A stretch of DNA of 64,000 bases from Lachnospiraceae bacterium (lineage in GTDB: Bacteria > Spirochaetota > Spirochaetia > Treponematales > Treponemataceae). The stretch's first letter is position 1. Each line of letters opens with the position of its first letter. Positions 30,915 to 52,171 of this stretch are shown piece after piece. The position numbers were made by a program, and so were the translations under genes. The notes under the pieces are model-generated. The model did not search any database and was not told the origin of the DNA. It worked only from the letters and a program-made list of their open reading frames with translations. Location of the stretch: assembly GCA_963651875.1 (NCBI GenBank), contig CAVJSA010000001.1:26534-90533 (forward strand). Direction: 5' to 3'.

Positions 30915-32270
30915 TTATTTTGAACATTCTTTTATTGCGTCTTCGTAAATTTTAAGACCGGCTTCGAGCTGAGCGTCTGTCATTACAAGAGGAGCAAGGA
31001 AGCGGATTACATTGTTGTAAGTTCCGGCATTTTCCATTAAAAGTCCGTGATGTGCTGCATACTGAATAATGTCAGAAACCAGTTTTGCATTTGGGGCCTT
31101 TGATTTTTTATCAGTTACAAATTCAACACCAATCATTGCACCAAGCCCACGAACGTCGCCGACACATTCATACTTTTCTTTCCATTCGTTGAATGTTTTT
31201 GTAATTTTTGCGCCAATTTCGTTTGCACGTGCAAGAAGATTTTCTTTGTCGATTACTTCGAGAACTTTTAAACCAGCAGCGCAGGCGAGGGCATTTCCGC
31301 CATAAGTTCCACCGATTACACCGCCTGGAACACTGTCGAAAATTTCATCTCTTGCGATGATTGCTGCAAGAGGAACGCCACCTGCAATTGATTTTGCAGT
31401 TGCAATAATATCTGGAGCACAACCAGCTTCTTTCCAGTATTCGCTTGCAAAAAGTTTTCCTGAACGGCCAAATCCAGACTGAACTTCGTCTGCTACAAGC
31501 ATGATTCCGTTTTCGTCACAGATTTTTCTTACGGCTTTTACGTATTCAATTGGAGCTGGAATAAAACCACCTTCGCCCTGAATTGGTTCAATTACGATTG
31601 CTGCAATTGTATCTGCGGCTGCACATTCTTCAAAAACAGAAGTCAACTTTGAAACATAATAGTCAATTGCCTTGTCGTCCGGCATTCCTTCCGGCTTTCT
31701 GTAAAGATATGGGAATTCTGCGCGATAGATTCCACCTGGCAAAGTTCCCTGACCGGCAGCATAAGCCTTTTTTGATGTCATTGCCATTGTAAGGAGGGTT
31801 CTTCCGTGGAATGCACCGCTCATTACGATAATATTTGATCTTTTTGTAAATGCCTTTGCAATTTTTACTGCGTTTTCGTCTGCTTCTGCACCAGAATTGG
31901 CAAACATTACTTTATTGTGGCTTCCTTTTACAGGAACACGAGGACCGAGTTTTTCTGCAAGTTCAACGTAACCTTCGTGAGTTACAATATTGAACATTCC
32001 ATGAAAATATTTTTCTGCCTGAGCTTTTACGGCTTCGACCAAAGCAGGATGTGCGTGTCCAACATTTAAAACGCCAACACCGCCAACCCAGTCAAGGAAA
32101 ATGTTACCATCAGGATCCTGAATCATTGCGCCTGCAGCTTTTTCAATTACACAAGGATAAATACAACGGATTGCTTTAGGAACTACAGCCTCGCGGCGAG
32201 CAATAATAGCCGCAGATTTTGGACCAGGAACGCTACCGTTAATTTTAGGAAGTTCATCTTTTAATGCCAT
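30915..32270 (-). CDS. gabT: 4-aminobutyrate aminotransferase (class III PLP)
   Basis: NSGAEADENAVKIA, FHGRT, EPIQGEGGF, DEVQSGFGRSG, AKSIAGG, GGTYGGN. Confidence 0.88.
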   Translation of the reverse strand: MALKDELPKINGSVPGPKSAAIIARREAVVPKAIRCIYPCVIEKAAGAMIQDPDGNIFLDWVGGVGVLNVGHAHPALVEAVKAQAEKYFHGMFNIVTHEGYVELAEKLGPRVPVKGSHNKVMFANSGAEADENAVKIAKAFTKRSNIIVMSGAFHGRTLLTMAMTSKKAYAAGQGTLPGGIYRAEFPYLYRKPEGMPDDKAIDYYVSKLTSVFEECAAADTIAAIVIEPIQGEGGFIPAPIEYVKAVRKICDENGIMLVADEVQSGFGRSGKLFASEYWKEAGCAPDIIATAKSIAGGVPLAAIIARDEIFDSVPGGVIGGTYGGNALACAAGLKVLEVIDKENLLARANEIGAKITKTFNEWKEKYECVGDVRGLGAMIGVEFVTDKKSKAPNAKLVSDIIQYAAHHGLLMENAGTYNNVIRFLAPLVMTDAQLEAGLKIYEDAIKECSK

Positions 32271-32535: not shown

Positions 32536-32845
32536 ATGCAACTTGGCTGGGTAGATTTTTCTGATAATGATAGAAAAAAAGAGCTGGAAAGTAATTAACC
32601 TTTTAAGAGAAAAAGGTGCAGTAGATGAATTATGTTTTGGAATAATCAGAGACGGGTTTGCTGATTATTTTTTCCCCGGAACCTCAACCGTTCAAACCAG
32701 GGCAAAATATTATCTGCTGGTTCCATATATTTTAAAAGAGACCGTAAAACAGGAAAAACCAGAACGTTATCTTGAAGCAACAGAAAAAGAAGTTGCAGTA
32801 GAAATGTTTAATAAAAAAATGAAAGACGGTCTAGTCGGAGAATAA
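32536..32845 (+). pseudogene. frameshifted, truncated DUF6361-like gene
   Basis: MQLGWVDFSD from ATG 32536 stops after 20 codons. GAVDEL..IRDGFADYFFPGTSTVQTRAKY continues in another frame and ends 8 bp before the dif-like site. Confidence 0.6.
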
Positions 32846-32853
32846 AACAAAAT

Positions 32854-32881
32854 ACTCATCATAATGCATATTATGTTGAAT
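32854..32881 (+). other. dif-like XerC/D recombination site, probable attL of the element
   Basis: ACTCATCATAA-TGCATA-TTATGTTGAAT has an 11-6-11 layout; the right arm is 1 mismatch from the XerD arm TTATGTTAAAT. Confidence 0.8.
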
Positions 32882-32978
32882 TTAAGTAGAAATACGCATT
32901 CACAGTTCGGATATGCACTTCTTTTATTGTCTGAAGAAAACAATATTATCTAAACTAAAAAAAAGCAAGAGCAATTTT

Positions 32979-33641
32979 TTATTTTTTGAAAAAATTATTT
33001 TTGATAAAATTGTTCTCAGTGATTTTGTTTAATGAAGTTTTTTCAAGTTGCGATATTGAAATCGCTTTTTTTATAATTTCTTTTCGTTCATAGTAGCTGC
33101 CGTTGATATGTCCCCAAAAGCGACCGACACGTGTCGGTTCAAAATTAAAGGACAGGCAAAAGTCATAAAAAATATCTGAAAGATTTTCTTTTTCAATTTT
33201 TGTAATTGTAATTTTTGTTGATGAAAGTTTTTTCCAGATATAATTACAAATGAACAGAGTTTGTTTATCGGTGTAGTTAAGTTTTAAATTTGAAATTATT
33301 TCAATCTGAACTTTTCCTTCAACGATATTTTTTTTCCAGATAAAAAGCGGTATTTTAATTTTAGAATTTCGCCATTTTTCATTGGAAAGGGAACGACAGA
33401 ATGATTTTACTTTTTTAAAAAATTCATTCTGATTTTCTAGTTCAACTGCCTCAAAGAGAATAGTATATTTGGGACTGAACGATACTAAAGAATCAACATA
33501 AAAACATAATCTTTTTATGCTTGAGCGTGAAAGTTTTTTAATTTTTCCTCGTTTGTTGTTTTTTAGGTTTTCCGAATAACCTCCGCCAGTACAAATTTCA
33601 ACAAAATGTTTTGTTGTTAAGTAATAAGAATTTTTTTTCAT
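32979..33641 (-). CDS. degenerate rolling-circle Rep-like protein
   Basis: RGKIKKLSRSSIKRL, FIWKK and GRFWG recall RCR initiators. No HUH or catalytic YxxK seen. AAGGAG RBS. Confidence 0.45.
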   Translation of the reverse strand: MKKNSYYLTTKHFVEICTGGGYSENLKNNKRGKIKKLSRSSIKRLCFYVDSLVSFSPKYTILFEAVELENQNEFFKKVKSFCRSLSNEKWRNSKIKIPLFIWKKNIVEGKVQIEIISNLKLNYTDKQTLFICNYIWKKLSSTKITITKIEKENLSDIFYDFCLSFNFEPTRVGRFWGHINGSYYERKEIIKKAISISQLEKTSLNKITENNFIKNNFFKK

Positions 33642-33694
33642 TTTCTTAAATCTCCTTTAAGAAAATGATTTTTAATAAAGAGATTTTATACGAT

Positions 33695-34582
33695 ATGAAT
33701 TTGCAAAATATTTTTGACACTCATTTTCTTGTAACTCGCTATCTTTGTCCTAATACAAGGCTTACGTATTCTGCTTATGTAAAACGCTTTTTGAATTTTT
33801 TAGAAATTCGCCAGATTGAAATTCAAGCTGTAGATATAAAAGTTCTTATTACTTTTTTTACGACACTGCCAAAAAGTATTAGTTCTAATAGACTTATGAT
33901 TTCTGCATTAAGAAAATTTGGAGAAGTTCTTGTCTTTGAAAAAATTATTTCTGAAAATATTTTTTTGATTTTAGATTTACCAAGACGTGAAAAAACTTTG
34001 GCACGTGTTTATGAAGAAGATGAAGTTAATGCTTTTTTAGATTGTATTGACGATTCAACAATTATTGGTAAGCGTGATAAAGCATTATTTGAATTGATTT
34101 ATTCAGCAGGTCTAAGGGCAAGTGAAGCTGGAGATGTAGAAACGGCAAGCCTGCATCTTTATGATAAATTCTTATTTGTTACAGGCAAAGGAAGAAAAGA
34201 AAGAATGGTTTGTTTTGGTGATATTTGCCGTAATTATTTAGAAGAATATCTGGATTATAGCCGACCATTTTTATTAAAAAATAAAAACTCTAAATATCTT
34301 TTTGTAAGTACACAACAAAATAAATTAAATCGAAATGAAATATGGTATAGATTTAAAAAATACCGAGAAAAGGTAGGTTTGCGCTACGGCACAGTCCATA
34401 CTTTAAGGCATAGTTTTGCAACACATCTTTACAAGCACGGAATGGGATTAGAAAACATAAGTCTTTTGTTAGGACACGAAAATTTAGAAACAACCTGCAT
34501 TTATACCCATTTAGACGGTTCGTATTTAAGAGAAGTTCATAGAAAGTATTTCCCAGGGCGTCCATTAGATGAAGATGAGTAA
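33695..34582 (+). CDS. XerC/XerD-like tyrosine recombinase
   Basis: RDKALFELIYSAGLRASE, GKGRKER, HTLRHSFATH, LLGH, TTCIYTH. Start may instead be 33665. Confidence 0.92.
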   Translation: MNLQNIFDTHFLVTRYLCPNTRLTYSAYVKRFLNFLEIRQIEIQAVDIKVLITFFTTLPKSISSNRLMISALRKFGEVLVFEKIISENIFLILDLPRREKTLARVYEEDEVNAFLDCIDDSTIIGKRDKALFELIYSAGLRASEAGDVETASLHLYDKFLFVTGKGRKERMVCFGDICRNYLEEYLDYSRPFLLKNKNSKYLFVSTQQNKLNRNEIWYRFKKYREKVGLRYGTVHTLRHSFATHLYKHGMGLENISLLLGHENLETTCIYTHLDGSYLREVHRKYFPGRPLDEDE

Positions 34583-34617
34583 GTTTTCGACCGACACGTG
34601 TCGGTCAAAAGAAAATG

Positions 34618-36699
34618 TTATTTATTCTCGAAGATTCTTGCAAGACGATAATTTGAATCCAGTATAAAACGGCATTCGTAAGTTTTACCTTCTTTACTGG
34701 TACATTTTTTTATTCCTGTTTTTTTACCTGTACAAAGATTTTTTACATCGCTTTTTGTAAAACTTGTTCCGCTGGAATTTTTCCAGATTGACGGAAAGTT
34801 ACAACCTTCTTTATATCCACTACAGAAAAAATTTTTTGCAGATTCTCTAATCGGCTTTTGACAAATTGGACAAAGAGTATCATCTGTTTTTATAGCGGAA
34901 AGTTCGATATTAAATTTTTGAGATACTGAAGTTCTTACAAAGTTTTTAATGTCGCTTATAAACGCAACAGGATTATTCTGTAGTTCTTCTTCCCAGTCTG
35001 TTGTTTGCGAAATATCAGCAGTTTTTGCAATCGATGAATTTCTTACTGCACAGAGAAATTCTTTTCCTAATTGAGTACAGATAAAATTCTTTTTTAAAAC
35101 TTCTATATATCCTAATTTAATAAGTTTTGGAATAAATGTATGTCTTGTTGCAGGAGTTCCCAAGCCTGCAAGTTTTGAACCGACACGTGTCGGTTCACTT
35201 TCGTCTGAATCATCTGCGACCGACACGTGTCGGTCGTACTTTGGATTTTCCATAAAAGAAAGAATACTTGCTTCATTGTAATATTTTGGAGGCTTAGTCC
35301 ATTTTTCAACTGTTTGTATGTCTGTTAAAACTAAATTATTCCAGTCGATATTTGAAAATTCCTGCGTTTCTTCCTCAGAATCTTCCTTTTGAACCGACAC
35401 GTGTCGGTCGAACATTACCGGTAAAATTTTAGAAAAGTTTTTATTGTTCCAGCCATATTCTGTAATGTTTTTTCCTATAATTTTAAAAGTATTATTATCA
35501 ACATTAAGAATAACTGTTGTTTTTTGATATTTTTGAGCTGGAAGAAATGCTGTTAAAAAACGTTCGTATATTAGTTGATAGATTTTTTTCTGTTCAGCGC
35601 TTGCTTGTGCAGAAATCTTTTTTAATGGAATTAAAGCGTGGTGAGCTTCAAGTTTTGCATCATTGAAACATCTTTTATTACTTAGAGAAAAATCTTCTAA
35701 TTCTTTTAATTGATTTAATTCGGAATTTTCTGTACAGAACTGATTAAAAATATTTTGACAAAGTTCTGTGTTTTTACTTCCCATAACTCTACTTGGAGTT
35801 CTTGGATAAGAAACACATTTTAATTCTTCATACAGACTTTGAAGAATTTTTAGAGTTTTTGCAGCGTCAAATTCAAAATATTTAAAAGCATCTTTTTGAA
35901 GTTCATTCAAATTATACAGTTGTGGTGGCAGTGTTTCTTTGTTTTCTGTTTGAAAATCCTGTAATTTTGCTTGAGTTCCAATACAGGTTTTTAATGATAA
36001 CTCTAATGAACTGTCTTTGAATTTTGTTCCAGAAAGATTAAAAACAATACCTTTTACTTTTGTGTTTGAACCGACACGTGTCGGTTCAAAATATCCGTAA
36101 TGCTCATAATATTTTTCTGGAACAAAGTTTTTAATTAAATCACACCTTGTTTCAATGGCAGAAAGAATTGCTGTTTGAACTCTGCCGACTGACAATTTTC
36201 TGTTTGCAGCAGAAGAAACGTATCTTGAAAAATTCATACCAACAAGCCAGTCTGCCCTTTGTCTTGCAAATCCTTGAGAAGCAAGTTCATTGTAATTTGT
36301 TAAAGGTTGTGCATTTTGAATTCCAGTTTTTATAACCTCTGGAGTTAATGCTTGTGATACCCAGAATCTTTTTATTTTGGAAAAATCTTTAATACCAGCC
36401 ATAAAAAGACATTCACGAGCGATAATTTCACCTTCTCGGTCAGCGTCAGTTGCAATCAAAATATCTGAATTTGCATTTTCTTTTAGCAACTTAATAACAA
36501 GTTTTGTTTGCTCAACTGTTTTTGGATTGATAGTGTAATCAAATCGTTCTGGAATAATTGGAATTTCAGAGCCGTAATGTTTTGGTTCTTCCAGTTGAAA
36601 AAGATGTCCGATGCAGTAAGAAATTATTAAATTTGGCATTCCTTGCAAGGCATTTTTAAAGTCTTTTGCAACGCTAGGTTTTTCCGCAAGTATAAACAT
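34618..36699 (-). CDS. topB: type IA DNA topoisomerase III (mobile-element type)
   Basis: LAEKPSVA, ATDADREGE, SVGRVQT, SYPRT, AHHALIP, GLGTPATR, C-terminal CPICQ..CSGYKEGC. Confidence 0.92.
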   Translation of the reverse strand: MFILAEKPSVAKDFKNALQGMPNLIISYCIGHLFQLEEPKHYGSEIPIIPERFDYTINPKTVEQTKLVIKLLKENANSDILIATDADREGEIIARECLFMAGIKDFSKIKRFWVSQALTPEVIKTGIQNAQPLTNYNELASQGFARQRADWLVGMNFSRYVSSAANRKLSVGRVQTAILSAIETRCDLIKNFVPEKYYEHYGYFEPTRVGSNTKVKGIVFNLSGTKFKDSSLELSLKTCIGTQAKLQDFQTENKETLPPQLYNLNELQKDAFKYFEFDAAKTLKILQSLYEELKCVSYPRTPSRVMGSKNTELCQNIFNQFCTENSELNQLKELEDFSLSNKRCFNDAKLEAHHALIPLKKISAQASAEQKKIYQLIYERFLTAFLPAQKYQKTTVILNVDNNTFKIIGKNITEYGWNNKNFSKILPVMFDRHVSVQKEDSEEETQEFSNIDWNNLVLTDIQTVEKWTKPPKYYNEASILSFMENPKYDRHVSVADDSDESEPTRVGSKLAGLGTPATRHTFIPKLIKLGYIEVLKKNFICTQLGKEFLCAVRNSSIAKTADISQTTDWEEELQNNPVAFISDIKNFVRTSVSQKFNIELSAIKTDDTLCPICQKPIRESAKNFFCSGYKEGCNFPSIWKNSSGTSFTKSDVKNLCTGKKTGIKKCTSKEGKTYECRFILDSNYRLARIFENK

Positions 36700-36817
36700 T
36701 TTTACCCCTAAACTCGACCGACACGTGTCGGTCGAAACTCATAAAAGAATTTTAGAAAAATAATAAAAACAATGCAAATATAAAATAATAATAACTAAAC
36801 AAAAAAACGTAAAAAAA

Positions 36818-36893
36818 CGCCTAACTCTATGACGCAAGATAAAGGTTTGTCGTACAAACACAAATAATTATATAAGTAATATAGAGTTAGGCG
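36818..36893. other. long-range inverted repeat in the divergent intergenic region
   Basis: CGCCTAACTCTAT (36818-36830) pairs with ATAGAGTTAGGCG (36881-36893) and encloses GTTTGT-CGT-ACAAAC. Confidence 0.6.
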
Positions 36894-37170
36894 GAGCACA
36901 GTGCTTTTTTGCGTGGTATTTTGTATTTTTCTACTATATTATGCTTGTGGTACATAATAAGAATATAGTATAATAAAAACAATACAAAAGACTATTGAAA
37001 TAAAAATGTAAAAAAGTTAATTTTGTATTAAAAGCCAATTAGTCAGATGATAATACCTATTTTTTTTGAAAAATCTATAAAATACAGAATTTTTTTAGGC
37101 TAAAAGCCTAAAATGTCAGATTTTAGTACTTAATTTTGAACCGACACGTGTCGGTCGTAAGGAGTAATAA

Positions 37171-37509
37171 TTGGAAATCGAAACAGGTCGTAATTATTCA
37201 ATGGCAGAAATCTGTTCATTACTGAATTACAACGAAAAAACAATAACTAAGAAAATTAAAAAACTGGAAATAAAGCCTGTTGGAAAAATAGGCAACAAAC
37301 GTGTATTTAGTGCGGAAGATGTCCAGAAAATAGAAAAATATAAACCAATGGCATTTAATCCTAAAACGGAATTTTTTAGAGTAAGTGTTTTAATTGGGAA
37401 TCACTGGATTGTAAAAAATGCAGGATTAACAAAAAAACAGGCTGGGGAGCGTATAAAAAAATTTAAGGCAGACGGTTATTTTGCGCAGTGCCGTAGTTGT
37501 AAAAAATGA
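37171..37509 (+). CDS. small HTH DNA-binding protein (MerR/excisionase-like)
   Basis: YSMAEICSLLNYNEKTI..RVFSAEDV; TTG start after TAAGGAG. Confidence 0.65.
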   Translation: MEIETGRNYSMAEICSLLNYNEKTITKKIKKLEIKPVGKIGNKRVFSAEDVQKIEKYKPMAFNPKTEFFRVSVLIGNHWIVKNAGLTKKQAGERIKKFKADGYFAQCRSCKK

Positions 37510-37542
37510 ACCGACACGTGTCGGTCGTAAGGGATTAAATAA

Positions 37543-38121
37543 ATGGCAGGCGGATATTTTTCTAAAAACGTTAAAAAGACTTTTGCAGAAGAAATAAAAC
37601 AAAGTAAAAACTTTTTTTATGAATTAAAACTTGGAATCGGAAAATGTGGTTTTCCTGAGTTACCAGAAGTTATTGAATATTTATTTGTGGAAATGGAAAT
37701 TCTGCATAGACAGCGTTCAAGGTTTATGAAAAAGAATAAAGGATTTATAAAACGATTCTTTATAAAGTATGACAATTTAACTGATATGTACGAACCTTAT
37801 TTTAATTTTCTTTTACTTTCTAATAAAACAAAAGAAAACTCAGAAATTTTTAAACTTCATTTACAAAATTATCATCAATGGCATAATGTCTGGTGCTTGA
37901 TTCATAAAAATTTTGATGATGTTGTAGTAAAACTTGAACCACTTGAAAATGAAAATGCAGAAACAATTATAAATGACTTTTTTAAGCAGCCGACAATCGA
38001 AGAAACTCCAATGCTTGGTGAAGAACAACAAAAAGAAATTCTTAAAAATCACAGGACTGTTTCTTTAGGTGGCATTTTTAAGGAAATCAAGAACCGACAC
38101 GTGTCGGTCGTAAGGGATTAA
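37543..38121 (+). CDS. Rep_1-like protein lacking the HUH motif, paralogue 1
   Basis: GFIKRF...YEPYFNFLL in place of HPHFH; RTVSLGGIFKEIK matches the Rep_1 C-terminal motif. Confidence 0.5.
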   Translation: MAGGYFSKNVKKTFAEEIKQSKNFFYELKLGIGKCGFPELPEVIEYLFVEMEILHRQRSRFMKKNKGFIKRFFIKYDNLTDMYEPYFNFLLLSNKTKENSEIFKLHLQNYHQWHNVWCLIHKNFDDVVVKLEPLENENAETIINDFFKQPTIEETPMLGEEQQKEILKNHRTVSLGGIFKEIKNRHVSVVRD

Positions 38122-38125
38122 AAAA

Positions 38126-38701
38126 GTGGCAGGCGGATATTTTTCTAAAGAATTAAAAAAATCTTTTGCCAAAAAAATAAAAACAAGTGAAAACTTTTTT
38201 TGCAAAATAAAACTTTCGATTGGACTGTGTGATTTTGTTGAATTACAAACGGTTTGCAAATATTTGTTCGGTATAAATGAACTTCTTGATAAAAAGAAAT
38301 TTTACTTTATTAGTGGACAAAGTTTTATTAAGAGATTTTTTATTCTCTATGACAAAATGACAGGAATGTTTGAACCGTGTTTTATTCTTCTTTTACTTTC
38401 TACTAAAAGCAGGATAAAAAGCGAAATATATAAAATTCGTGTAAGTATTTATATTCGCTATCTTAGTTTATGGTGCAGGTTGAATAAAAGTTTTTATGAA
38501 AACTCAGTTGTTGTTGACCAATTAGAAAACGGAATGGCAGAAGAAATTATCAATGAATTTTTAAAAAAAACAACAATCGAAGAAAATTCAATGATTGATG
38601 AAGAAACCTTAAAAACTAATTGCAAAAATTATCCTAGCGTTACATTGACAGGAAGTTTTAAAAGTATAAAACAAAGATACTTGTCAGCGGTTGAACGATA
38701 G
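38126..38701 (+). CDS. Rep_1-like protein lacking the HUH motif, paralogue 2
   Basis: GTG start, identical MAGGYFSK, colinear similarity to 37543-38121. Confidence 0.5.
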   Translation: MAGGYFSKELKKSFAKKIKTSENFFCKIKLSIGLCDFVELQTVCKYLFGINELLDKKKFYFISGQSFIKRFFILYDKMTGMFEPCFILLLLSTKSRIKSEIYKIRVSIYIRYLSLWCRLNKSFYENSVVVDQLENGMAEEIINEFLKKTTIEENSMIDEETLKTNCKNYPSVTLTGSFKSIKQRYLSAVER

Positions 38702-38794
38702 AAAATGTTCGACCGACACGTGTCGGTCGAAAGTAAGTGAGTTTTGTAATTTTGCCCCCGATTGTATTCAATTTTACAGCAGCAAAAAAGAGCC

Positions 38795-38849
38795 AATGGC
38801 GAGTTAGGACAAGTTAGAGCGACAAAATGGCAAATTAGGACGAGTTAGA
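38795..38849 (+). repeat. 24-bp direct repeat just upstream of the relaxase (candidate oriT or operator)
   Basis: AATGGCGAGTTAGGACAAGTTAGA versus AATGGCAAATTAGGACGAGTTAGA, 21/24 identical. Confidence 0.6.
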
Positions 38850-38869
38850 AAAAAAAGGAAGAAATTATT

Positions 38870-40054
38870 ATGTTGTCAAAAAATATATTTACAGATAAAT
38901 GGGAAGAAGATTTATACAAGATTAAAAAAGCGTATAAAAAAGACGATGTAAGTTATCTTAATAACCTGTTAAAAAAACTCAGCCGACCGACACGTGTCGG
39001 TCGTAAAGGTTCTAAAAGTTTTTCTGGCGGTAACGCAGTCTTTTTTGAACCGACACGTGTCGGTTCAATGGATTCTAAACAGCAACGTGTAACTTTTAAA
39101 ATGACTTATAGTAATTCAAAGCAAGCTCACGACAAATATCTTAATACCTATATGACGCAACAAAACAGAGAAGAAGTAACTCAAAAACCTGTTCTTTTTG
39201 GTACAGAGGTAGATGTTTATAATGAAAATCAAGTTGATAACCATTTTAAGTGTATTATTTCCCCAGAGAATCAAAACGCAGACCTTGAGATTTTGACAAG
39301 AACGTTTGTAAAACATCTTGAAGCCCAGACTGGATATAAATTTTACTGGCAGGCAGCTATTCATAGCAACACTGAACATAAGCACGCTCATTTATGTATA
39401 AACGGAAAAGACCAGAACGGAAAGGACGTTTATTTTCAAAAAGAAATGATAAAAAGAACAATGCGAGAAACTCTTTCAAATATTGCAACAAAACTGTTAG
39501 GCAATAGAACGGAAGCAGAAATTCAAGCTGGAAGAAAAAATCTTATAACAGCTATGCGCTGGACTGAACTTGATGAACGTATAAAGAATTCTGCATCGTT
39601 GTTTTTTCCTACATTAGATTCTGTATTACAAAATCGTATTGCGTTTTTAATCCAGAATAATCTTGCATCTAAAAATGATGAAAATTGTTCTTTAAGGGAA
39701 GAGTGGGAAGACGTATTAAAAGCAACTGGACGGTACAATACTTATTTTGAAAAATATCAAAAATTGAATGGAAATCTTGAACTTTATTCTGGTGGTAGCG
39801 TTATTGGAAAAGTTGTTGATTTAATCAGTTTTGATAAAGATGAAAGTTGGAATGATGCTTTAATAATCAATGATGGACAGAAAAATATTTATGTTCCAAT
39901 TTATCAGCTGCAAAAAGAAGATTTAATCGGCAAAACTGTGTCTGTAAAAGGTGGAAACAGGAAACTTGCCAGACAGATAAAAAATTCTGATATTAGAGTT
40001 TTAGACGAAAATAAAAATATTCAAAATCTTAAAAACAAGAATATAAAAAGATAA
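38870..40054 (+). CDS. MOBP/VirD2-like relaxase
   Basis: QRVTFK, HFKCIISPE and AAIHSNTEHKHAHLCING (H...HxH). Confidence 0.85.
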   Translation: MLSKNIFTDKWEEDLYKIKKAYKKDDVSYLNNLLKKLSRPTRVGRKGSKSFSGGNAVFFEPTRVGSMDSKQQRVTFKMTYSNSKQAHDKYLNTYMTQQNREEVTQKPVLFGTEVDVYNENQVDNHFKCIISPENQNADLEILTRTFVKHLEAQTGYKFYWQAAIHSNTEHKHAHLCINGKDQNGKDVYFQKEMIKRTMRETLSNIATKLLGNRTEAEIQAGRKNLITAMRWTELDERIKNSASLFFPTLDSVLQNRIAFLIQNNLASKNDENCSLREEWEDVLKATGRYNTYFEKYQKLNGNLELYSGGSVIGKVVDLISFDKDESWNDALIINDGQKNIYVPIYQLQKEDLIGKTVSVKGGNRKLARQIKNSDIRVLDENKNIQNLKNKNIKR

Positions 40055-40090
40055 TTGAACCGACACGTGTCGGTCGTAAGGAAAAGAAAA

Positions 40091-40321
40091 ATGCTTATTA
40101 AAATTATATCAATCGGCTTTTTATGTATTGCAATACTTTTGCTGTTTGTTTTTTTAATTCACTTAATAAGAAACAGGGTGCACTGGACTTTTTTAATAGG
40201 CACTTTATTTTTTATGGGAGCTTTTTCTTACATTGCATATACAATTTATAAAACACCAGAATCTGAAATTTACAGAAATGTAAATGTCGCTTCGTTTATA
40301 AATGAAAATGCAGAAAATTAA
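40091..40321 (+). CDS. small two-TM membrane protein
   Basis: ATG 40091 after TAAGGA; flanked by two palindrome copies. Confidence 0.6.
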   Translation: MLIKIISIGFLCIAILLLFVFLIHLIRNRVHWTFLIGTLFFMGAFSYIAYTIYKTPESEIYRNVNVASFINENAEN

Positions 40322-40447
40322 CAAATGAACCGACACGTGTCGGTCGGATTATCCGTAATGTTCTGTATTTATATTATTTTGACATTGTACAATATTTAAT
40401 ATAAACTCTTTTATAAGTATCTGCTTCGCCCAATTTAGAGGATACTT

Positions 40448-41152
40448 ATGAGTATAAAAAACTACCAGCCAGAAGGAAAGGTTATTACACCTTTCAATTT
40501 GCAGTTATCCCATTACGATATGCTGTGTGGTGAAAAAGACAAACAGATAAAAATACTGCGTTTTGTTGTTGTTATTGCCTGTCTGTCTTTTTTTCTTTCA
40601 CTTGGAATTACTTTTTATGCTGTTAATCTGCCAGAATCTATTCCAGTTTTAGTAACAATGAATGATTTTGGAGAAACTTCTTATGTCGGTGCAGTAAGCC
40701 GAAAAAACTTTCAGAATTTTAATGTTCCAGAAATTGCAGTTGAATATCAAGTAAAAAAATTCATTGAACTTTATTACACGTTAAGTACGGATAAAGTTGT
40801 TATGAAATCAAATCTAGCAACTGTATACCATTTATTGAATACCCAGTCTGCACAAAAGCTAAATATTTTAACAAAAGAAACCAATCATTATGCAGACTTT
40901 GGAGATTATACAAGAGAAGTATTTTTTCAGACAGAACCGTTAAAACTATCAAAAGACAGTTATCAAGTTGATTTTGAAGTTACAAAACGAACATTGAGTG
41001 GCGAAACACAGGATAAGTTTTATTACCGTTGTGTTTTGACCGTTCGGATGCTAAAGCCTACTGACGATGACATAAAATTTAATCCGTTAGGAATCTATAT
41101 AACCAACTTTGACTTTAAAGAAATTCAACAGCAAAAGACAGGAAGAAAATAA
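40448..41152 (+). CDS. trbF: T4SS TrbF/VirB8
   Basis: Single TM helix, SYQVDF, NPLGIYITNF. Confidence 0.85.
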   Translation: MSIKNYQPEGKVITPFNLQLSHYDMLCGEKDKQIKILRFVVVIACLSFFLSLGITFYAVNLPESIPVLVTMNDFGETSYVGAVSRKNFQNFNVPEIAVEYQVKKFIELYYTLSTDKVVMKSNLATVYHLLNTQSAQKLNILTKETNHYADFGDYTREVFFQTEPLKLSKDSYQVDFEVTKRTLSGETQDKFYYRCVLTVRMLKPTDDDIKFNPLGIYITNFDFKEIQQQKTGRK

Positions 41153-42247
41153 ATGAAAAAAAGTATATTTACATTAAAAATAGTACCACTGATTTTTTTA
41201 GTATCAGCGTGTGTAAGTTCAAAAGACCTTGAAAAAGACGTAAACGAAAATGATTTTTTTGAAGATACAAAAAATATTGAAGAAGAAGAACAGAAAAACG
41301 AAAGTGAATTAAAGGGCATTTATGTACAAGAAGAACTAAAAGTTCAAGATGTGGAAAACACAGTCGTTTATATTGATAGACCTGTTTACGTACCAGAACA
41401 GAAAAATGTTCCAGAATTAGAACGCAATAATAAAAGTGGCTATGAAGCTGCCGTTGAAAGTCAAAAACGTGCTACAAAATCACCAGAGCGTTACAAGGAA
41501 GGAACTTTTTTTTATACATATAGTGAAGATTTAGTTTTTGAAGTTTATGCACAGCCATATCATTTAACGGACATTATTCTTGAAGCTGGTGAAATTGTTA
41601 ATGCAACTCCGTTACTTTCTGAAGGTGAAGAAGTCTGGGAATTAACAGCAGGTGTTGCTAAAGACCCATTAACTCAACAAGACATTCAGCATATTTTTAT
41701 TAAACCTGCGTATTCAAAATTGGATTCAAGCCTTGTAATTATTACAAATCGCAGAGTTTACCATTTTAGGATAAGGTCGTTTGCAGACACTCATATGGCA
41801 ATGGTCAAATTCACCTATCCAAACAAATTCAATCAGTGGGCAGGGAAAAACTCAAGTTTAAATTCTTCTGTTGAAAGTGATTTTGTACGCATAACAAATC
41901 CAGAACTTCTTTCGTTTGACTATAAGATGTCTTATTCAATGTGGAAAAAGCCAGAGTTTTTACCGACACGTGTCTATGATGACGGACAGTCAACTTATAT
42001 TCAAGTTACAGATTCTGTCTTGCAGAAAAAACTTCCTGTACTTTTTAACGAGAAAAACGAAATTATAAATTACAGCGTAAAGCGTAATATTTTTGTAATT
42101 CCTCGTTTAATTAACAAAGTTACTTTAAGGCTTGGTAAAGAAAAGGTAACTATTCAAAAGAAAAAAACAAAAGCAGTTGTAGTTGAACAAAAAGAGGAAA
42201 GTACAAATGGAAGACCAGACACAAAAACAACAGCAAGCGGAAAATAA
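41153..42247 (+). CDS. trbG: T4SS TrbG/VirB9, lipoprotein-like
   Basis: TDIILEAGE, HIFIKP, ITNRRVYH, PTRVYDDG; LVSAC lipobox. Confidence 0.85.
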   Translation: MKKSIFTLKIVPLIFLVSACVSSKDLEKDVNENDFFEDTKNIEEEEQKNESELKGIYVQEELKVQDVENTVVYIDRPVYVPEQKNVPELERNNKSGYEAAVESQKRATKSPERYKEGTFFYTYSEDLVFEVYAQPYHLTDIILEAGEIVNATPLLSEGEEVWELTAGVAKDPLTQQDIQHIFIKPAYSKLDSSLVIITNRRVYHFRIRSFADTHMAMVKFTYPNKFNQWAGKNSSLNSSVESDFVRITNPELLSFDYKMSYSMWKKPEFLPTRVYDDGQSTYIQVTDSVLQKKLPVLFNEKNEIINYSVKRNIFVIPRLINKVTLRLGKEKVTIQKKKTKAVVVEQKEESTNGRPDTKTTASGK

Positions 42248-43658
42248 CAGCGAAAATCCTAATCAGTTTGCAGCAGCAAGCATAAACAAATCAGACTTTT
42301 CCGCAGACGATATTGCTACTGACAGTCAAGAAGACGGAGACTTGCCACCTCCAGAAGATGAAAACGAAGCTACTCAAATAAACGTAAGTGCAATTTTTGG
42401 AGCTTTTTTTATCTTAGTTTTTTTGATTATTTGTATTTTTCTTATTTTTGGACATAAAAAGCAAAAAGTTAAAAATACTGATATGGAAAAGGCTAGTTCA
42501 AAATATGGCTACAATTTTGACTTAAAAGAAATGGATAAAGAAGAAAAAAAGCCTGTAAATACTTTTGAAAATTCTATATCTCAAGAAAATCCAGCAGAAA
42601 GTAACACTATGACGGACGAGCAGATACAAAAAGAACTAGAGGCTTTTGAAGGTGATGACACTCCAGCCTATACTTATAATACTAATAGTGGCAAAGCACC
42701 AGTAAGAGCAGTTGGTTCAAATTATTCAAATGTTGAACGTCCCGATACAAGAAATTCAAAATCGCCTAGAAAAATAGACGGATTAAAAGGGCAGAGTTCT
42801 CCAGACGCAAACAAAAGTATTGTCAGTGCAGCATTAAATGGTAGTGGCACAACTTCTCAAAATGAAAGAATGACAAAAGAAGATTATATTTTGCAGATGA
42901 TGAATCGAACTCAACAGATTCAAAATCAAGTTTATGGAAGCAATACATCGTCTGGCAGTTTTGGTTCAAATTCAAGTTATGACTATCAAGGCAATAAAGA
43001 ATCTTTCTTTACTAACAATACTGGCAATGGAGCAGGAAGTGGTACTTATCTTTCTTATAATTCTCTTTGGGACGGAACGATTATCAGCGGTGCTTTAGTT
43101 ACTGGCATAAATACGGATAACCCAGGAGTTGTAATTGCTCGTGTAACAGAAAATATCTATTCAAGTTATGACCACTCTTTTCTTTTAATTCCAGAAGGTT
43201 CTTTGCTTTATGCAACTTATAACAGTTCTGTCAGTTATGGGCAGGATTCTGTTCAAGTCGCTTGGAATCTTTTAATCCGACCAGACGGTTATCGAATATC
43301 ACTAGGAAATATGAACGGTGTTGATTCGCAGGGAATGAGCGGTTACGAAGGAAAAGTAAATAATCACAACTGGCAGATGATGAAGGCTTTTGGACTTATT
43401 GCTGTTTATTCAATGATTCAGACAGAAATCAGTAACGATATTTCAAATACGAATAATGAATATCTGCAAAACGCTATGACAGACGTTTATACCGAAGCAA
43501 AAAAACTTGGTAACAAAATTGTTGACCGTGCGCTTGATATAAAACCAACCATAACGATAAAAGCAGGCACAGAAATTAAGTTAATTACAAATATTCCTTT
43601 GGAACTGCCTCCAGTTGAGATCCCAAAGGCTAGTCAAAAATATGTCAGAACAAAATAA
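42207..43658 (+). CDS. trbI: T4SS TrbI/VirB10
   Basis: GTIISGALVTGINTDNPG, LLIPEGS, IRPDG, DSQGMSG, IKPTITIKAG. Confidence 0.9.
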   Translation: MEDQTQKQQQAENNSENPNQFAAASINKSDFSADDIATDSQEDGDLPPPEDENEATQINVSAIFGAFFILVFLIICIFLIFGHKKQKVKNTDMEKASSKYGYNFDLKEMDKEEKKPVNTFENSISQENPAESNTMTDEQIQKELEAFEGDDTPAYTYNTNSGKAPVRAVGSNYSNVERPDTRNSKSPRKIDGLKGQSSPDANKSIVSAALNGSGTTSQNERMTKEDYILQMMNRTQQIQNQVYGSNTSSGSFGSNSSYDYQGNKESFFTNNTGNGAGSGTYLSYNSLWDGTIISGALVTGINTDNPGVVIARVTENIYSSYDHSFLLIPEGSLLYATYNSSVSYGQDSVQVAWNLLIRPDGYRISLGNMNGVDSQGMSGYEGKVNNHNWQMMKAFGLIAVYSMIQTEISNDISNTNNEYLQNAMTDVYTEAKKLGNKIVDRALDIKPTITIKAGTEIKLITNIPLELPPVEIPKASQKYVRTK

Positions 43659-43664
43659 AAAAGT

Positions 43665-43877
43665 ATGAAAAGAAATTGGTTCAGTAACTTTGAATTACAG
43701 GTTATGGAATTAAACGAAAGATTTAATGAATTTGAAAAACTGTCTGAAGATTTTGCTGATGTTGTAAAAAGACTTACGGTTAATTTGCAGGAGAATTCAA
43801 GAGTTAACTATGAATCTTTTAGACCAGCACAAGAGAATCAAAATTTTAAGAAAGTAAAAGATAAGGAGATTTTATGA
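43665..43877 (+). CDS. small coiled-coil hypothetical protein
   Basis: 70-aa ORF filling the gap; ATGA overlap with the next gene. Confidence 0.5.
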   Translation: MKRNWFSNFELQVMELNERFNEFEKLSEDFADVVKRLTVNLQENSRVNYESFRPAQENQNFKKVKDKEIL

Positions 43878-46800
43878 AAAGGAAAACAAAGCAAAGCTTT
43901 TTTTATGCTTTTATTGCTGTAATTGCAATGGCTGTCTTTATTACAGGTTGCAGTTTTTTTTCTAGTTTTACAGATAAAGATGAAAGTGATGTTGAAATAA
44001 CTTCATTAAGTCTAGGAAAAAGCACTTTATCACTAAAAGTTGGCGGACTTGATTATGTTTCGTTAAAAATCACCCCTATAACAAGTCAAAAAGATGTAAA
44101 AGTAAATTGGACTTACGACAGTTCAATTATCGAAGGAGAAACTTCCAACTATGGAATAACAATAAAAGCACTTGCAGAAGGAACAACAGTCTTAAAGGCA
44201 AGTTATGGAAGTTATGAATCTGTTTGTATTATTAGCGTGTCTGGATATGAAGACGGATACGTAGAAACAACAGACCCATATATTTATTCAAATACAAGTA
44301 TTTTACAGACAAGCATAGGTATTACCGAAAAAGTATTTGTTTCTCTTCATGGCGGTAGTGCAGCTGATATTGACGGTTATACTTGGAGCAATGAAAACAG
44401 TTCTGTTGCAGAAATTCAAGCGACTGGTCAATACTGCCTTATTACGGCTAAAAGTACTGGATACTCAAGAATTAAAATTACACATTCAAAGGCAACATAT
44501 CCTTATTATATTGGTGTTTATGTTTTTAGCGATAATACAAAAGTTCCTTATATTACAACTTCAAACAATATTCTTACCTTAAATAAAGATGATGCAGAGC
44601 AGACTATCAGCTGTAATCTTGTTGACGGAAGCGACAGTGCAAAAGACAGTTATTTTTCTTGGGAAATTTTGTCTTCTGATAGTGCACAAGTTCCTGTCAG
44701 TATTTCGTCTAATGCAAATAAGGCTGTAGTAACTCCAAAAGCAGAAGGAAGCTGTACAATCCGAATTACTCACCCAGAAGCAACATATCCGCTGGATATT
44801 CTTTGTCGTGTAATTACCATTGTTAAAAATGTTTATATTGAACCAGACAATACTATTGTTACTCTAAGTGGCGAAAACGAACAGATAATCAGTTCAACGC
44901 TAAAAAATATTGATACAAGCGAATATTCAATCGACGATTACGAATATAAACTTGATGATTATGATGTTGCAGAAATTGTCGGTTACAGTGGTAACCAAGT
45001 AATTTTAAAAGGAAAGGCAAACGGAAGCTGTAAACTCATTATTTCGCACCCGAAATCTGTTTATTCAAGAGAAGTTCTTTGTATTGTAAACGGTCAGTTA
45101 AAAGACGCTGTAGATTCTTCCGTTTATATTACGACTACTCAAAACTATATCCGAACAAAAGTTGGAAACGATGCAACAACATTAAATATTTCGCTAAAAG
45201 GCGGAGAAGACGGTGATGAAGGAAACTTTACTTGGACTGTAAAAAGTACGGCAGTTGACGGTAGCAGCGATGTAATTCAACTTGAAACAGCAAATGGAAG
45301 TGTAATTAGTTCAAGAGTGGCAGCTTCTACCTATGCTTATGGAACGGCAGTAATTACGCCAAAGGCAGAAGGAACAGCCGTTATTACAATTACTCACCCG
45401 AAAGTTGTTTATCCTACAGAAATTCTTGTAAAAGTTTTAGATTCTTCAGCTGTACTTGAAAATCCGCTTTATTTTAGTGGAGAAGGTCTTGTAAAAATCT
45501 TAAATGGCGAAAGTGCAGATTATACTGTAAATCTAAAAGGCGACAGTAAAAAAGATAGTGATGATAACAACATTAGTTATGAAATCAGCGATTCAAGACT
45601 TTCTTTAATTGCCAGTGCAAACACTGTAAATATTACAGCCCCAGCATTAAATACAGGTTGCACAACTTCGACAATGACAATTTCGCACCCGAAAGTTGAT
45701 ACTTCTAAAACTGTTGTTGTAATGACAGCCGATGACGAAGAAACTTTGGATTCAATGAAAGCTCTTTATGCAGACAAGAATTATTACAATCTTGAATATG
45801 GCGCAAGCGTTATTGTAACTGTTAATACAGTTGGTTTTGACGGTGAAGATTCTAGTTATGATTATTCAAAAGCAAATTGGACAACGACAGATTCTACTGT
45901 AATTTCTGTAGAAAAAAATTCTACAGACGGTCGAATGTGCACTGTAAAAGCACTAAAGGCTGGAAGTGTTAATCTTACTGTAAGTATCGAAGATTATTCT
46001 TATACGTTCAAAATAACCGTTTATCCAGAAGGAGCAATTCAGACAGACCCAGAAGTTTATTTTACGACTACCCAGAATGTTGTAAATTTAATTGGCGAAG
46101 GCAGCACAAAAACTGTAAGTATTACGGCATTAAATCTTTCTTCAAGTGAATATTCTAATATTACTTGGGAAGTTGAAGATTCTAATGTTGCAACTGTAAT
46201 TCCAAATGGAACTAAAGCGACAATAACGGCAGTTGCGGACGGTGAAACTGTAATAAAAGTAAATCATTCAAATTCTCAAAATGAACTTAAAATCTATGTA
46301 AGAGTAGGCAGCGAATACGTTATTCCAGAGGTTGACCCTACCGTTTATATTTCTGCGCAGGACGTTATTACAATGCTAAAAGACGATTCTGTTCAAAAGT
46401 TGCAGGCAGTCCTAGTAAATTACAGCGAAGCAGATTCAAACGGATTTAAGTTTTCGATTGATAATGAAGACATTGCAAAAATCTCAACGCAATCTGTAAA
46501 TGGAATTGCCTATATAAAGCCTGTAAGTGCAGGGCAGGCAGAAATTAGTATTACTCACCCAGCAACTTCTATTGTAAAACACGTTCTTGTTGTTGTCGGA
46601 AACACCGCAGAAGACCTTGCAGCGTATCAATATTTGACGACAAGCACAAACGTTGTTGCTATTGGCGAAGGCAGCACAAAAACTGTAAGTGTAAGTGTTA
46701 AAAATTCAGCGGAAGTAATTGTTGACGGTTACAGCTGGTCTAGTGAAGATTTAAACATTGTTGATATAACGACAACAAACGGTGCAACGGCAGTTTTTAA

Positions 46801-49800
46801 AGCCAATAAATGCGGAACAACTACTGTAAAAGTAAGAAATACAGCGTGTTCTTATCCGCTTGAAATTATCGTACAGGTTGTTGACCCGATAGCAGCAGCG
46901 GCAAATCCTTATATTCAGCTTAGTTCAAGTGTTTTAACATTAAATGTTAGTTCAACTTATACAAATATTACGGCAGACTTAGTTGGTGGCAGTGAAGAAG
47001 ATTATTCAGACTTTATATGGAGCGTAAATGACAGTTCAATTTGTAGCGTTTATGGTCAAAACGAAGTTGGAAAAATAAAGGCATTAAAAGCAGGAACAAC
47101 TTATGTAACTGTTTCTCACCCAAAGGCAATGTATACAGCTCAACTTCTTGTTGTTTGCGATGAAGTAGCCGCAACTGAATGTTATATAAGCGTACCGTCA
47201 AGCATTATTGCAATGAAACCAACGGATTCAAGCCAGACTATTACGGCAAGCCTTGTAAATGGTTCAACTAACGATAAATACAATTTTACTTGGTCGCTTG
47301 ATGTTTACGATATTATTGATTTTCAATACTCAGCTAATGTCTGCACAATTACACCAAAGTCAACTGGAAGCGTAACTATTACAATTTCGCACCCAAAGGC
47401 AGCGTATGACCAGCAGATAATTGTAAACGTTCAGCAGTATTCAACTTTTGGATTTCCAGATACAAATTTAACGACAACACAAGGAAACGTTAAATTTTTG
47501 ACAATGCAAGTTCCTACAACAAATGCGACAACATATATTTCTTATTCTGTTGATGATTCAAGTATTTGCTCAATTACAGGAACAAAGAGTGTCGCTCAAC
47601 TAACGGCTATCAGTGCAGGAACAACAACTATTCGTGCTGACCTTATTGCAAGCTCTACTGGAGTTGTTCAAGCAAGTTCGGAATGTATGGTTTATGTACA
47701 AAAAAAATCTGTTGATACGGCTTATATTTCAAGTTCAACAACAATTTATACCGTACAGAAAGGAAAAAGCCAGACTATTACGGCAACTATTTCTGGTACA
47801 GATGTTGAAACTAACGATTCTGCAAGTCTAAAATGGACAACATCGGATAGCGATATTGTTTCCGTTACAGGAATTTCTTCTGACGGTTATGTTACAGGAA
47901 AATCAATCTACGTAACGGCAAAAGCAGCAGGCGAAGCAATTATTACCTGTACTCACGAAAAAGCAGCTAGCGCATTGCAGTTTTATGTAGTAGTGCCTGG
48001 CTCTTCTTCTAAAGTTGTTACGTTGAACAAGTCTTACATAACTTTAACAAACGGAAGCAGTGGAACTACAATTTCTGCAACTGTTGAAAACGCAGAAAGT
48101 AACGAAGATTACAATAATCTTGAATGGAAACTCGAAAGCCTTAATACTGTTGATGAAATTGCAAGAGTAATGGGAAGTGGTAAAACTGTAACAATTTATC
48201 CGATTAAAACAGGCGAAGCTACTTTGACTGTTTCTTTGCCAGACAGCGCAAGCACAGCAAAATGTAGTGTAATTGTTGAAGCAAACAAAAGTTTAACTTT
48301 TGATACAAGCAGTGTAAGTGTCCAGCCAGCACATACAAAGACAATCGGCTATAAAGTAAGTCCAGCAAACGCAACCTTAAATTGGGTGTATACATATCAA
48401 TCTACAGGAGGAGGAACGCAGGATGTTTTTTCTTTCCGTGATTTAGGCTGTGATTCTGACGGTAACGGTAAAGTAGAAATTATTGGCGAAGCAATAGGCA
48501 GCGGAACACTAGCGGCAACAACTGACGGAAATGCAAAAGGGCAGATGTCGGTTCGTGTAGCGTGGGATTATAGTTTTAGCGTTAAAGGAAGTTCTACATT
48601 TAGTTGTGAACCCAACGAAGTAAAAACGTTTAATTACACAGTAAATCCAGCAGACGCTGATGTTTATATTGATTCAACAGACGCAGGAGATATTTTTAAT
48701 TATTCTGTAACCGACAATGGCGATGGAACAGGCACTATAGAAATTACAGGATTAAAAGAAACTTCAACCGATGTTTCTATAAAAGTAATTGCCACCAATC
48801 CAAACAATAATGACGAAGAAATTGGTACAAAAAAGATTACTGGAAAATTTAGGTATGGAAGTGTTAGTGCAACTGTAAACGTTACTAACCTTGACGGAAA
48901 TTTTTCTGAGTATGACAGCGGTATTCTTTATGTTGGTGATGGCGAAAAAGTAAAACTTAATGTTGGATTAACGCCAGTTGGCGCAAATATTTCTAATGTT
49001 ACAATGACTTTTTCAAATAACTCAGATGTTAGCAAAAATTTGTTGTCTGGTGGAAGCAACAATGAATGGACTTTTACAAGTCCAAGTGAAGATATTACAG
49101 AAAATGAGTATTTGATTAACAGTTGCTATTTACCGTGCCTTGACGGAACTGTAATAGCAACTTGGGATACATCTTTTAACTGGTATGTAGGAAATCACAA
49201 GCACGGTGATTCTACAGATTGTACAGAAATTGTTCAGATTTATAACGGTAACAGTTTTAATTTTAATACAAGTTATTGTATGAGAGGCTATACATATAAT
49301 GTTGTTTCTTATGACGATGACGATAGTGCAAACTATGGAAGAATTGCAGAACAAACTGCGTGTGAAAAATTTTTAAAAGAGCATTATGGCTATCGTATGT
49401 TTTTTAGCGATTATCATTATAGCAAACAATATAGAGGAAAAACTCCAGATTGGAAAACAAACAATGTTACATTTTCGTTAAAAGAAGCTCCAGAACTAGC
49501 AGGAAAGATTTATTCTCAAAAAGAATTTGAAAAAATCGGTTGGTTTTATTGTGTAGGAACTCTTTCAAATAAAACAGGTACACTTCAAAATTATGATGAA
49601 GGAGATGCATATCTTTTGAAAAATAGCGGTACGTGGGGAGTAAATGCTTCTTTAGTTGAAGACGGTTACCTTAATTGTATTGATGATAAGGAAGGACATT
49701 GGGTTTGCGTTTATCCACACGTTTTAACGGACGTTGTTGATGCTACGTTACGAACTTCAACAGATACAAAAACTGTAAGTACACAGCAGATTGGAACTTT

Positions 49801-49894: not shown

Positions 49895-49905
49895 TAAATA
49901 ATTAC

Positions 49906-49953
49906 AAAAAAAAACTCTCAGACGCTCGTAGATGCGTTTTGAGAGTTTTTTTT
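49906..49953. terminator. bidirectional intrinsic terminator
   Basis: A9-CTCTCA...TGAGAG-T8 between convergent genes. Confidence 0.8.
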
Positions 49954-49972
49954 GAAGACTGTTTCGTAAATA

Positions 49973-50782
49973 CTAATTATAAGTAATTGTAACTATTTTA
50001 TCTGTACCGTTTAATTGGATTTTTGCTGTTGGGTTTTCACTGTTATCGCAGGCTTCTCCGTCAAAAATTACAAAATAATCTGTAATACCTTTAATAATTT
50101 TAGAATTATCTTCAATTACGCTATACGTTTCTTTGCAATCTGAAGAATGGTATAAATATACAGAAGATTTTCCGTCCCATTCAAAAGTTGAGGTATTATC
50201 AAGATTTATAATTTGTGTTTTTTCTGAAGAATAGACAAATGTAAGTATGTCTTCATCATCGCCACTGCCAGTAATTGTACTAGCATCGTACTGTTCGTCA
50301 GTAGTATAAGTGTAAACTTCATCATCATAATTATCTTTTCCACCTTGCCATACTGTTTTTGTACTATACGGGGCTCTGTATACTGCAACTAACGAGTTAT
50401 CGGATTTTTTAAATTGCAAGTAATATGCTTTTGGGTCAGGCAGTGTAATATAATCATTTTCTGTACAAGAAACTTCATAATTGTCTTTTAATCCAGAAAA
50501 ACATTTATAGAAATATGTATCATCATCAGCAGGAAAATTTAACAAAAATTTGTATGTGTAACTTACAGGTTTTTCGATGTCAAAATGTTTTTCTACTGTT
50601 TCTGTAGTAGTTGATGCTGTTATTGTATTTGTATAAACCGTCTGTCCAGAACTTGATGTTCCGTTTGTGTCTGTATTTGTATTTTCCGAATCACTACTGT
50701 TTCCAGAATCCGAGCTTTCGTTTGAACAACTGAATAAGAATACAGCCGACAGTGCCATTAAAATTGCAAGTAATTTTTTCAT
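49973..50782 (-). CDS. lipoprotein, unknown function
   Basis: MKKLL...FLFSC lipobox, Ser/Thr/Asn linker, AAGGAG RBS. Confidence 0.75.
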   Translation of the reverse strand: MKKLLAILMALSAVFLFSCSNESSDSGNSSDSENTNTDTNGTSSSGQTVYTNTITASTTTETVEKHFDIEKPVSYTYKFLLNFPADDDTYFYKCFSGLKDNYEVSCTENDYITLPDPKAYYLQFKKSDNSLVAVYRAPYSTKTVWQGGKDNYDDEVYTYTTDEQYDASTITGSGDDEDILTFVYSSEKTQIINLDNTSTFEWDGKSSVYLYHSSDCKETYSVIEDNSKIIKGITDYFVIFDGEACDNSENPTAKIQLNGTDKIVTITYN

Positions 50783-50798
50783 TGTTTTTACTCCTTAA

Positions 50799-51434: not shown

Positions 51435-51436
51435 AA

Positions 51437-52042: not shown

Positions 52043-52073
52043 CGTTCTTCTCCTGTCTGAACCCTCCTTATAA

Positions 52074-52128: not shown

Positions 52129-52171
52129 TAATTTTTATCAGATTATTGAAATTAGTACAAATAATTATATA

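Follow-up and report, generated by a model that had tools for sequence, protein, structure and literature searches.

The treponeme chromosome studied here gives way at one point to the genes of a conjugative element, with a dif-like site at the switch and a gene for a Xer-like recombinase beside it. The locus raises the question of whether the element entered at the host's own dif, and of what an additional recombinase would do there. The window, that is, the whole stretch of DNA that was analysed, comprises 64,000 nucleotides of contig C1 of a binned genome assembled in 162 contigs (G000). Both the closest named homologues and Atlas taxa mark the host as a treponeme.

The element and its junctions

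A sequence-only reading had placed a dif-like 28-mer at the switch from host to element genes, and ACTCATCATAA-TGCATA-TTATGTTGAAT is present at window positions 32854-32881 (C1:59387) as a single exact copy in the 2.65-Mb genome. At 32-33 kb of the window GC content drops to 0.30, from 0.38-0.40 before, and genes for TopB, a relaxase and a type IV secretion system (T4SS) follow. The next-best match to the 28-mer in the genome, with five mismatches, is a partner site on contig C35 (263-290), ACTCATCATAA-TGCATA-TTCTGTCTACC, which supplies the second dif-like copy expected at the right end. The junctions comprise the following features:

30915..32270, minus strand: host class III aminotransferase (gabT-like), left flank
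32567..32845, plus strand: DUF6361 gene remnant of about 300 bp, between gabT and attL, missing from the empty site of G338
32843..32876, plus strand: left copy of a 34-bp direct repeat, 33/34 identical to C35:252-285, with 30 bp perfect
32854..32881, plus strand: attL, with a host-type XerC arm (32854-64), a 6-bp spacer (32865-70) and an element-specific XerD-type arm (32871-81)
C35:252-285, outside the window: right copy of the direct repeat, containing the intact host dif (C35:263-290)

Identity between the junctions extends 11 bp past the XerC arm (32843-32864 and C35:252-273), and an 8-bp inverted repeat flanks the C35 dif. Species-specific changes were found at both junctions, in G000 and in the related genome G328, which suggests conversion during recombination. 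The orientation of dif, together with the element, relative to gabT and mfd (window 32270-32881) is inverted in G000 compared with G328 (C34/C57) and G338 (C74).

A 55-mer is common to the end of C1, which breaks off inside the start of parA, and the beginning of C35; joined there, the two contigs place the repeats 60,191 bp apart, with an element GC content of 0.333 versus 0.389 for the genome. A third contig, C134, also ends in the 55-mer joining C1 to C35; the join is therefore branched and the true length could be greater. C134 is either a branch or a rearranged version of the element's right end: in C134:1-500 the parA 5' region is followed by a truncated tyrosine recombinase that belongs to another element, which also has HTH repressor and peptidase-like genes and an IS at the far end. 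The features of the element are:

32854..64000: left 31 kb of the element, which runs on to the end of C1 and then into C35
32979..33641, minus strand: 220-aa ORF (orf220), between attL and xerD' and divergent from xerD'; candidate accessory factor
33665..34582, plus strand: XerD paralogue (XerD'), likely start 33695; R151, K175, H245, R248, H271 and Y280; helix RNEIWY at residues 223-228
34618..36699, minus strand: type IA topoisomerase (TopB-like)
37543-38701: two tandem paralogous ORFs of about 190 aa each, no Pfam matches
38870..40054, plus strand: relaxase-like protein (MobA/VirD2-like), below curated cut-offs
40448..43658, plus strand: VirB8, VirB9 (CagX) and VirB10 (TrbI)
43874..49894, plus strand: 2006-aa Ig-like repeat lipoprotein
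52172..54418, plus strand: VirD4 coupling protein
54877..62103, plus strand: VirB11-like ATPase, VirB2, VirB3, VirB4 and VirB6
C1:93031-108864 (L002): 5277-aa polyvalent protein with MuF-C, LPD3, PBECR1, methylase and SNF2 domains in the first 4656 aa, the part scanned

The right part of the element encodes ArdC-N proteins, SSB, an exonuclease, an HTH Rep-like protein, a ParB-like protein and ParA. Orf220 gave no Pfam match, no XafT-like match and, in the Atlas, a weak lead to REP_ORF2-G2P, at 14% of one cluster. Among 20 stretches of related elements, 8 have a homologue of the ~190-aa ORFs, placed between topB and the relaxase gene. A 16-bp palindrome, ACCGACACGTGTCGGT, which resembles parS, has 22 copies in the element (window 33120-40100 to C1:116370) and none elsewhere in the genome. 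Many of these copies lie in frame inside genes (EPTRVGS, DRHVSV), 15 fall within the 7.5 kb to the right of attL, and the palindrome also occurs in 12 of the 20 related-element stretches; the ParB-like protein of the element likely uses these copies as sites of the parS or operator type. A promoter scan yielded nothing above shuffled sequences.

The host dif

A control-compared pattern search with the left arm and spacer alone matched 31 of 338 genomes versus 3 control matches, and at 5 of the 30 loci from this search the sequence continued with TTCTGTCTACC unasked (a sixth nearly so). With TTCTGTCTACC as the right arm, the pattern was found in 145 of the 163 genus genomes of at least 90% completeness, and this host dif pattern gave 253 matches versus about 37 control matches in 29 genomes, as counted by eye. 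The majority sequence over the 30 loci is ACTTCCTATAA-TGTATA-TTCTGTCTACC; the left arm varies between loci and the right arm hardly at all. The right arm formed part of the search pattern and left-arm positions 1-3 did not, and left-arm positions outside the pattern are also conserved (A in 26/30, C in 28/30). An E. coli-like dif was rejected as the host site, as it matched 14 of 61 relatives, the control level.

In the accessible parts of two earlier studies XerD arms are the more conserved of the two (PMC3025954, PMC2731167), and the conserved right arm is here taken as the XerD arm. Predicted Leptospira and Brachyspira dif sites, in the available supplement of PMC3025954, have a left-arm type like that of the host; the name Treponema is absent from the main text and two supplements of that genome-wide dif survey. 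The opposite orientation, in which the element's arm would replace the XerC arm, is disfavoured by arm conservation, by the XerD identity of the element's gene and by the published spirochaete predictions.

In all five closed or near-closed genomes considered (G063, G065, G069, G070 and G071, with sizes rounded except for G065) dif lies about 48-54% of the genome away from dnaA. Of 10 stretches sampled on each side of dif in G065, 8 before it have a positive GC skew and 9 after it a negative one, although the skew is weak. In G000 the raw skew is +0.003 to the left and -0.086 to the right of the element, and third-position skew flips sign across it. The share of coding sequence pointing to the site is 65% over the left 59 kb, 89% in the nearest left 29 kb and 85% on the right. 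The skew switch proposed as a check was thus found, and the remark that host genes on the left mostly point towards the site holds.

The comparison with an empty site, also suggested beforehand, came from the close relative G338, in which gabT, one dif and mfd lie within 340 bp and no element is present. The genus-wide motif, the terminus position and this empty site together identify the C35 copy as the working dif and the window copy as a hybrid attL. The sequence-only reading was therefore right that the element is integrated at dif and wrong in taking the window copy for that dif, which lies at the far end. As for its comparison with E. coli dif, the right arm of attL (hereafter the D' arm) has a single mismatch to the E. 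coli XerD arm, but this arm is the element's and not the host's, and it differs from the host XerD arm at 5 of 11 bases. By its sequence, the D' arm reads as a well-formed XerD-type arm that host dif does not use.

Additional dif-like sites, combining a host-type XerD arm with other spacers, were observed in G000 (C78:7206 on the minus strand, C100:1562 on the plus strand), in G338 (C4:63509) and at loci L157, L158, L165 and L166. They resemble plasmid or pdif-type modules, and many genomes of the genus have more than one.

A XerD paralogue encoded by the element

The recombinase ORF begins 784 bp downstream of the 28-mer, matching the distance of about 0.8 kb given earlier, and its product is a XerD-type paralogue, so that the element does encode a Xer subunit of its own. 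XerD' is closer to XerD than to XerC (47% identity to host XerD, 32% to XerC; 224 bits against the XerD profile TIGR02225 versus 208 against TIGR02224), with the curated TIGR02225 cut-off of 329.6 lying above the scores of both XerD' and host XerD (296). The recombinase phylogeny that had been called for places XerD' and its homologues in a long-branch clade beside treponemal XerDs and apart from XerC; a sister relationship to the host's own XerD was neither shown nor rejected (AU p 0.26, on a long branch). Host xerD (after ftsZ), xerC (in topA-xerC-hslVU) and FtsK-gamma (C11) are present and intact, and the genome has five PF00589 matches, with one tyrosine recombinase in the element.

Two homologues of XerD' appeared among the 120 matches listed, at 80% (P0002) and 60% (P0003) identity. 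The six catalytic residues R-K-H-R-H-Y are intact in XerD' and in P0002, across 20% divergence. P0003 has R-to-K, K-to-N and H-to-N changes at catalytic positions with an unchanged recognition helix, and is possibly a non-catalytic subunit.

The recognition helix reads RNEIWY in all three XerD' homologues. At columns 221, 222 and 225 (E. coli numbering), 141 of 142 host-type XerDs have K/G/K, whereas the three element proteins have N/E/Y and E. coli has Q/T/H. In PMC2731167, as far as the available text goes, dif positions 23-24 are major determinants of XerD specificity and position 24 is the predicted contact of Q221; this position is C in the host site and T in both the element and E. coli sites. 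The D' arm and the changed helix were observed together in G000 only, and the pair thus represents one lineage and not independent co-variation.

The C-terminal tail of XerD docks on XerC. In XerD' the last 22 residues (284-305) are 73% identical to the XerDs of G000, G328 and G338, versus a median identity of 32% to 147 other XerDs. The same codon is used at 8 of the 15 residues in common with host-clade XerD, and the synonymous differences argue against recent DNA exchange. This likeness would fit selection to keep docking on host XerC. A reciprocal contact made by the XerC tail is discussed in the accessible part of PMC5052618. At the columns of E. coli E183/E184, which contact FtsK-gamma, XerD' has D/I and P0003 has D/V; host treponemal XerDs vary at both.

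Related elements and distribution

One contig of G328 has the parA end, attR and host flank, and a second has attL and its flank; this arrangement lends independent support to the layout of the element. The D' arm is identical in G000 and G328, while neighbouring DNA is 83% alike; host and element genes show similar divergence between the two genomes (85-91% identical). Within G328, whose attL contig ends 254 bp past the site, xerD' was not found, and the relaxase near the parA end (L083:12549-13781, on C57) is a different one, at 43% identity. The two elements thus appear to have common ends and different interiors.

Counting G000, 69 of the 338 genus genomes have a related relaxase. None of 20 stretches around related relaxases (4-20 kb each, covering the xerD'-side flank) contained xerD', so that the backbone moves without it, and the element has the look of a conjugative backbone common among treponemes to which a XerD' module was added. 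In four of the 20 stretches a dif-like site, which combines the host D arm with a different spacer, lies within a few kb of topB, one of them on a 165-kb second replicon.

No second XerD-like match was detected in the 337 other genus genomes (single-protein search) or in 200 genomes of the order (three-row profile). A broader six-row profile recovered no further xerD' carrier in 200 genus genomes; its one extra match, in G139, is a xerC-codY pair on a 2.5-kb contig and was set aside as probable contamination. Query A1 found no further carrier in genome_contigs or viral_contigs, viral matches with query A2 were 24-38% identical, and plasmid matches were all below 60% identity (15 listed at 32-37%). 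A search of 1.84 billion proteins returned one cluster, followed by a gap from 613 to 252 bits. The attL pattern gave three matches in a genome scan, two in unrelated bacteria and one an element end already counted; with two mismatches allowed, the genus-wide pattern was too loose to read. A metagenome scan for the site core gave one match, within phage-like structural genes, which was judged to be chance.

Four treponemal-XerD-like proteins on short contigs (P0136, P0142, P0168 and P0151) have altered recognition helices and are candidate independent XerD' lineages. Proteins of 620-710 aa with two tandem Xer-like domains (P0138-P0140, P0143-P0147 and others) were also among the best profile matches.

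Integration model and alternatives

We favour, with moderate confidence, a mixed Xer complex in which host XerC would act on the shared arm, host XerD on the chromosomal arm and XerD' on the element arm. After conjugative entry, the attP of the circle (C arm and D' arm) would pair with dif (C arm and D arm) in a synapse formed by a C-D-C-D' tetramer, and the crossover would leave a working dif at the right end and a hybrid attL at the left. Given mismatches at 5 of 11 positions, the D' arm is likely a poor binding site for host XerD, in which case FtsK-driven XerCD would not excise the element at each division and excision would need expression of XerD'. A plain crossover in the spacer does not explain the extra 11 bp of identity at the junctions, and this counts against the model, as does the loss of three catalytic residues in P0003; its chief weakness is that the pairing of arm and helix comes from a single genome. 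In its boldest form the model would add a fourth way to exploit Xer: neither borrowing host XerCD nor activating it, the element would supply an orthogonal XerD subunit with reprogrammed arm specificity, build a three-protein C-D-C-D' synapse and control its own excision. We rate this as about as likely as not.

An attP with nearly symmetric arms invites a different view, in which XerD' would act mainly as a homomer, like XerS, XerH or Cre, resolving multimers of the free circle and perhaps taking the XerC position at integration, where host XerD would be confined to the chromosomal arm. The arms of attP differ at 2 of 11 positions in G000, compared with 6 for host dif. At positions 4 and 7 the left arm in G000 has left the genus consensus and moved closer to the D' arm, and the genes for ParA, a ParB-like and an HTH Rep-like protein suggest that the element passes through a plasmid-like state. 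However, attP in G328 has three arm-to-arm mismatches, the G000 left arm is still inside the range of host XerC arms, and XerD' has kept a tail like that of host-clade XerD despite divergence elsewhere in the protein, a likeness for which a homomer would have no use; we regard a homomer as unlikely. Somewhat less probable again is integration by host XerC and XerD only, perhaps with an activator such as orf220, XerD' being non-essential or a structural or blocking subunit that guards attL against excision. The anatomy of the site, with a common C arm and spacer and a divergent D arm, is that described for GGI and TLC in the accessible text of PMC5357621 and PMC9226527; TLC integrates via host XerD despite its divergent arm, the XafT and XafV genes adjoin attP as orf220 does, and P0003 is without three catalytic residues. 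On the other side stand the conserved catalytic residues of XerD' and P0002, a D' arm that has not decayed but stayed identical between G000 and G328 amid diverged neighbouring DNA, and the lack of a XafT-like match for orf220.

It is very improbable that the locus is a fixed relic, or its layout an artefact of assembling a binned genome. The number of contigs and the entry of C134 into the joining 55-mer would allow an artefact, and the similar divergence of host and element genes fits long vertical inheritance. Against this reading are the junction contigs of G328, the empty site in G338, the open frames of the T4SS genes and xerD', and the species-specific changes at both junctions, together with the different relaxase beside parA in G328, which suggests continuing exchange.

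Comparison with known Xer-dependent elements

Elements that exploit Xer recombination offer several points of comparison. The gonococcal genetic island (GGI), a 57-kb T4SS-bearing IMEX of Neisseria, resembles the element in size, T4SS cargo and integration at dif, and in having a common XerC arm and spacer, a divergent XerD arm at one end and an intact dif at the other (PMC5357621, PMC9226527, PMC6744903, as far as their text was available). It differs in being described there with host XerCD, no XafT-like factor and an arm called degenerate, whereas the element has a well-formed XerD-type arm and a XerD paralogue 0.8 kb away. Resistance of the GGI to FtsK-driven excision is reported in the accessible parts of PMC5357621 and PMC9226527. 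TLC-phi likewise has a divergent XerD arm at attP, and in TLC-phi-type phages a factor encoded beside attP frees integration from FtsK (PMC6744903, PMC9226527, 10.64898/2026.06.12.731946). In the available descriptions that factor is a small activator of host Xer and not a recombinase subunit, and these are small phages, not conjugative elements.

Other elements have recombinases of their own. Helicobacter pylori PZ1/TnPZ (tfs4, XerT/XerD) shares a T4SS, a topoisomerase and its own XerCD-family recombinase needed for excision, but it excises at a short duplicated motif and not at dif, and a dimer-resolution role was considered unlikely (PMC2952849, available portion). The element has no such short duplicated motif away from dif; its target is dif with a 34-bp repeat, and its enzyme is paralogous to the XerD of its host. 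Tailless Vibrio prophages are dif-resident and have their own integrase genes, with the integrating enzyme left open, but the accessible text of PMC11630473 neither describes these integrases as XerD paralogues nor reports an arm swap; among the sources covered they are the nearest precedent. In Coxiella burnetii a Xer gene, xerL, is located on a plasmid with a related dif-like site, but XerL is described as a single-recombinase system with the sole copy on the plasmid (PMC9765430, available text), whereas the element's host keeps both xerC and xerD.

As in IMEXs, integration is at the chromosomal dif of a host with XerC, XerD and FtsK, with a dif mimic, an intact dif at one end and a modified site at the other; the element departs from IMEXs in encoding its own integrase. 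As in ICEs, there are matches to VirB2, 3, 4, 6, 8, 9, 10 and 11 and to VirD4 (the relaxase match being below cut-off), a recombinase beside an att end, direct repeats and an empty site elsewhere. The element is thus an IMEX/ICE variant of the GGI/TLC type, with the added XerD' and an arm of its own as what is new. No description of a dif-integrated element with its own XerD paralogue was found in the full-text literature searched, a scope that includes few subscription papers, and the replacement of one host Xer subunit, through which the element likely integrates and excises, is a strategy not encountered there.

Implications

For a large treponeme genus the analysis provides a dif consensus, whose XerD arm is unusual. 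It also provides a host and element pair in which the arm (5 of 11 bases) and the helix (three otherwise nearly invariant residues) differ together, and which offers a ready test of the code by which XerD recognises dif, as well as an orthogonal subunit for integration at dif. How large dif islands such as the GGI enter and persist despite a poorly read XerD arm has long been elusive, according to the available part of PMC6744903, and the element offers a simple, testable answer, namely to bring a matching XerD. If true, this would be a swap of specificity made in nature, one that reveals how dif is read by the XerD helix, and the element may represent an intermediate between hijackers of the host Xer system and self-sufficient integrases.
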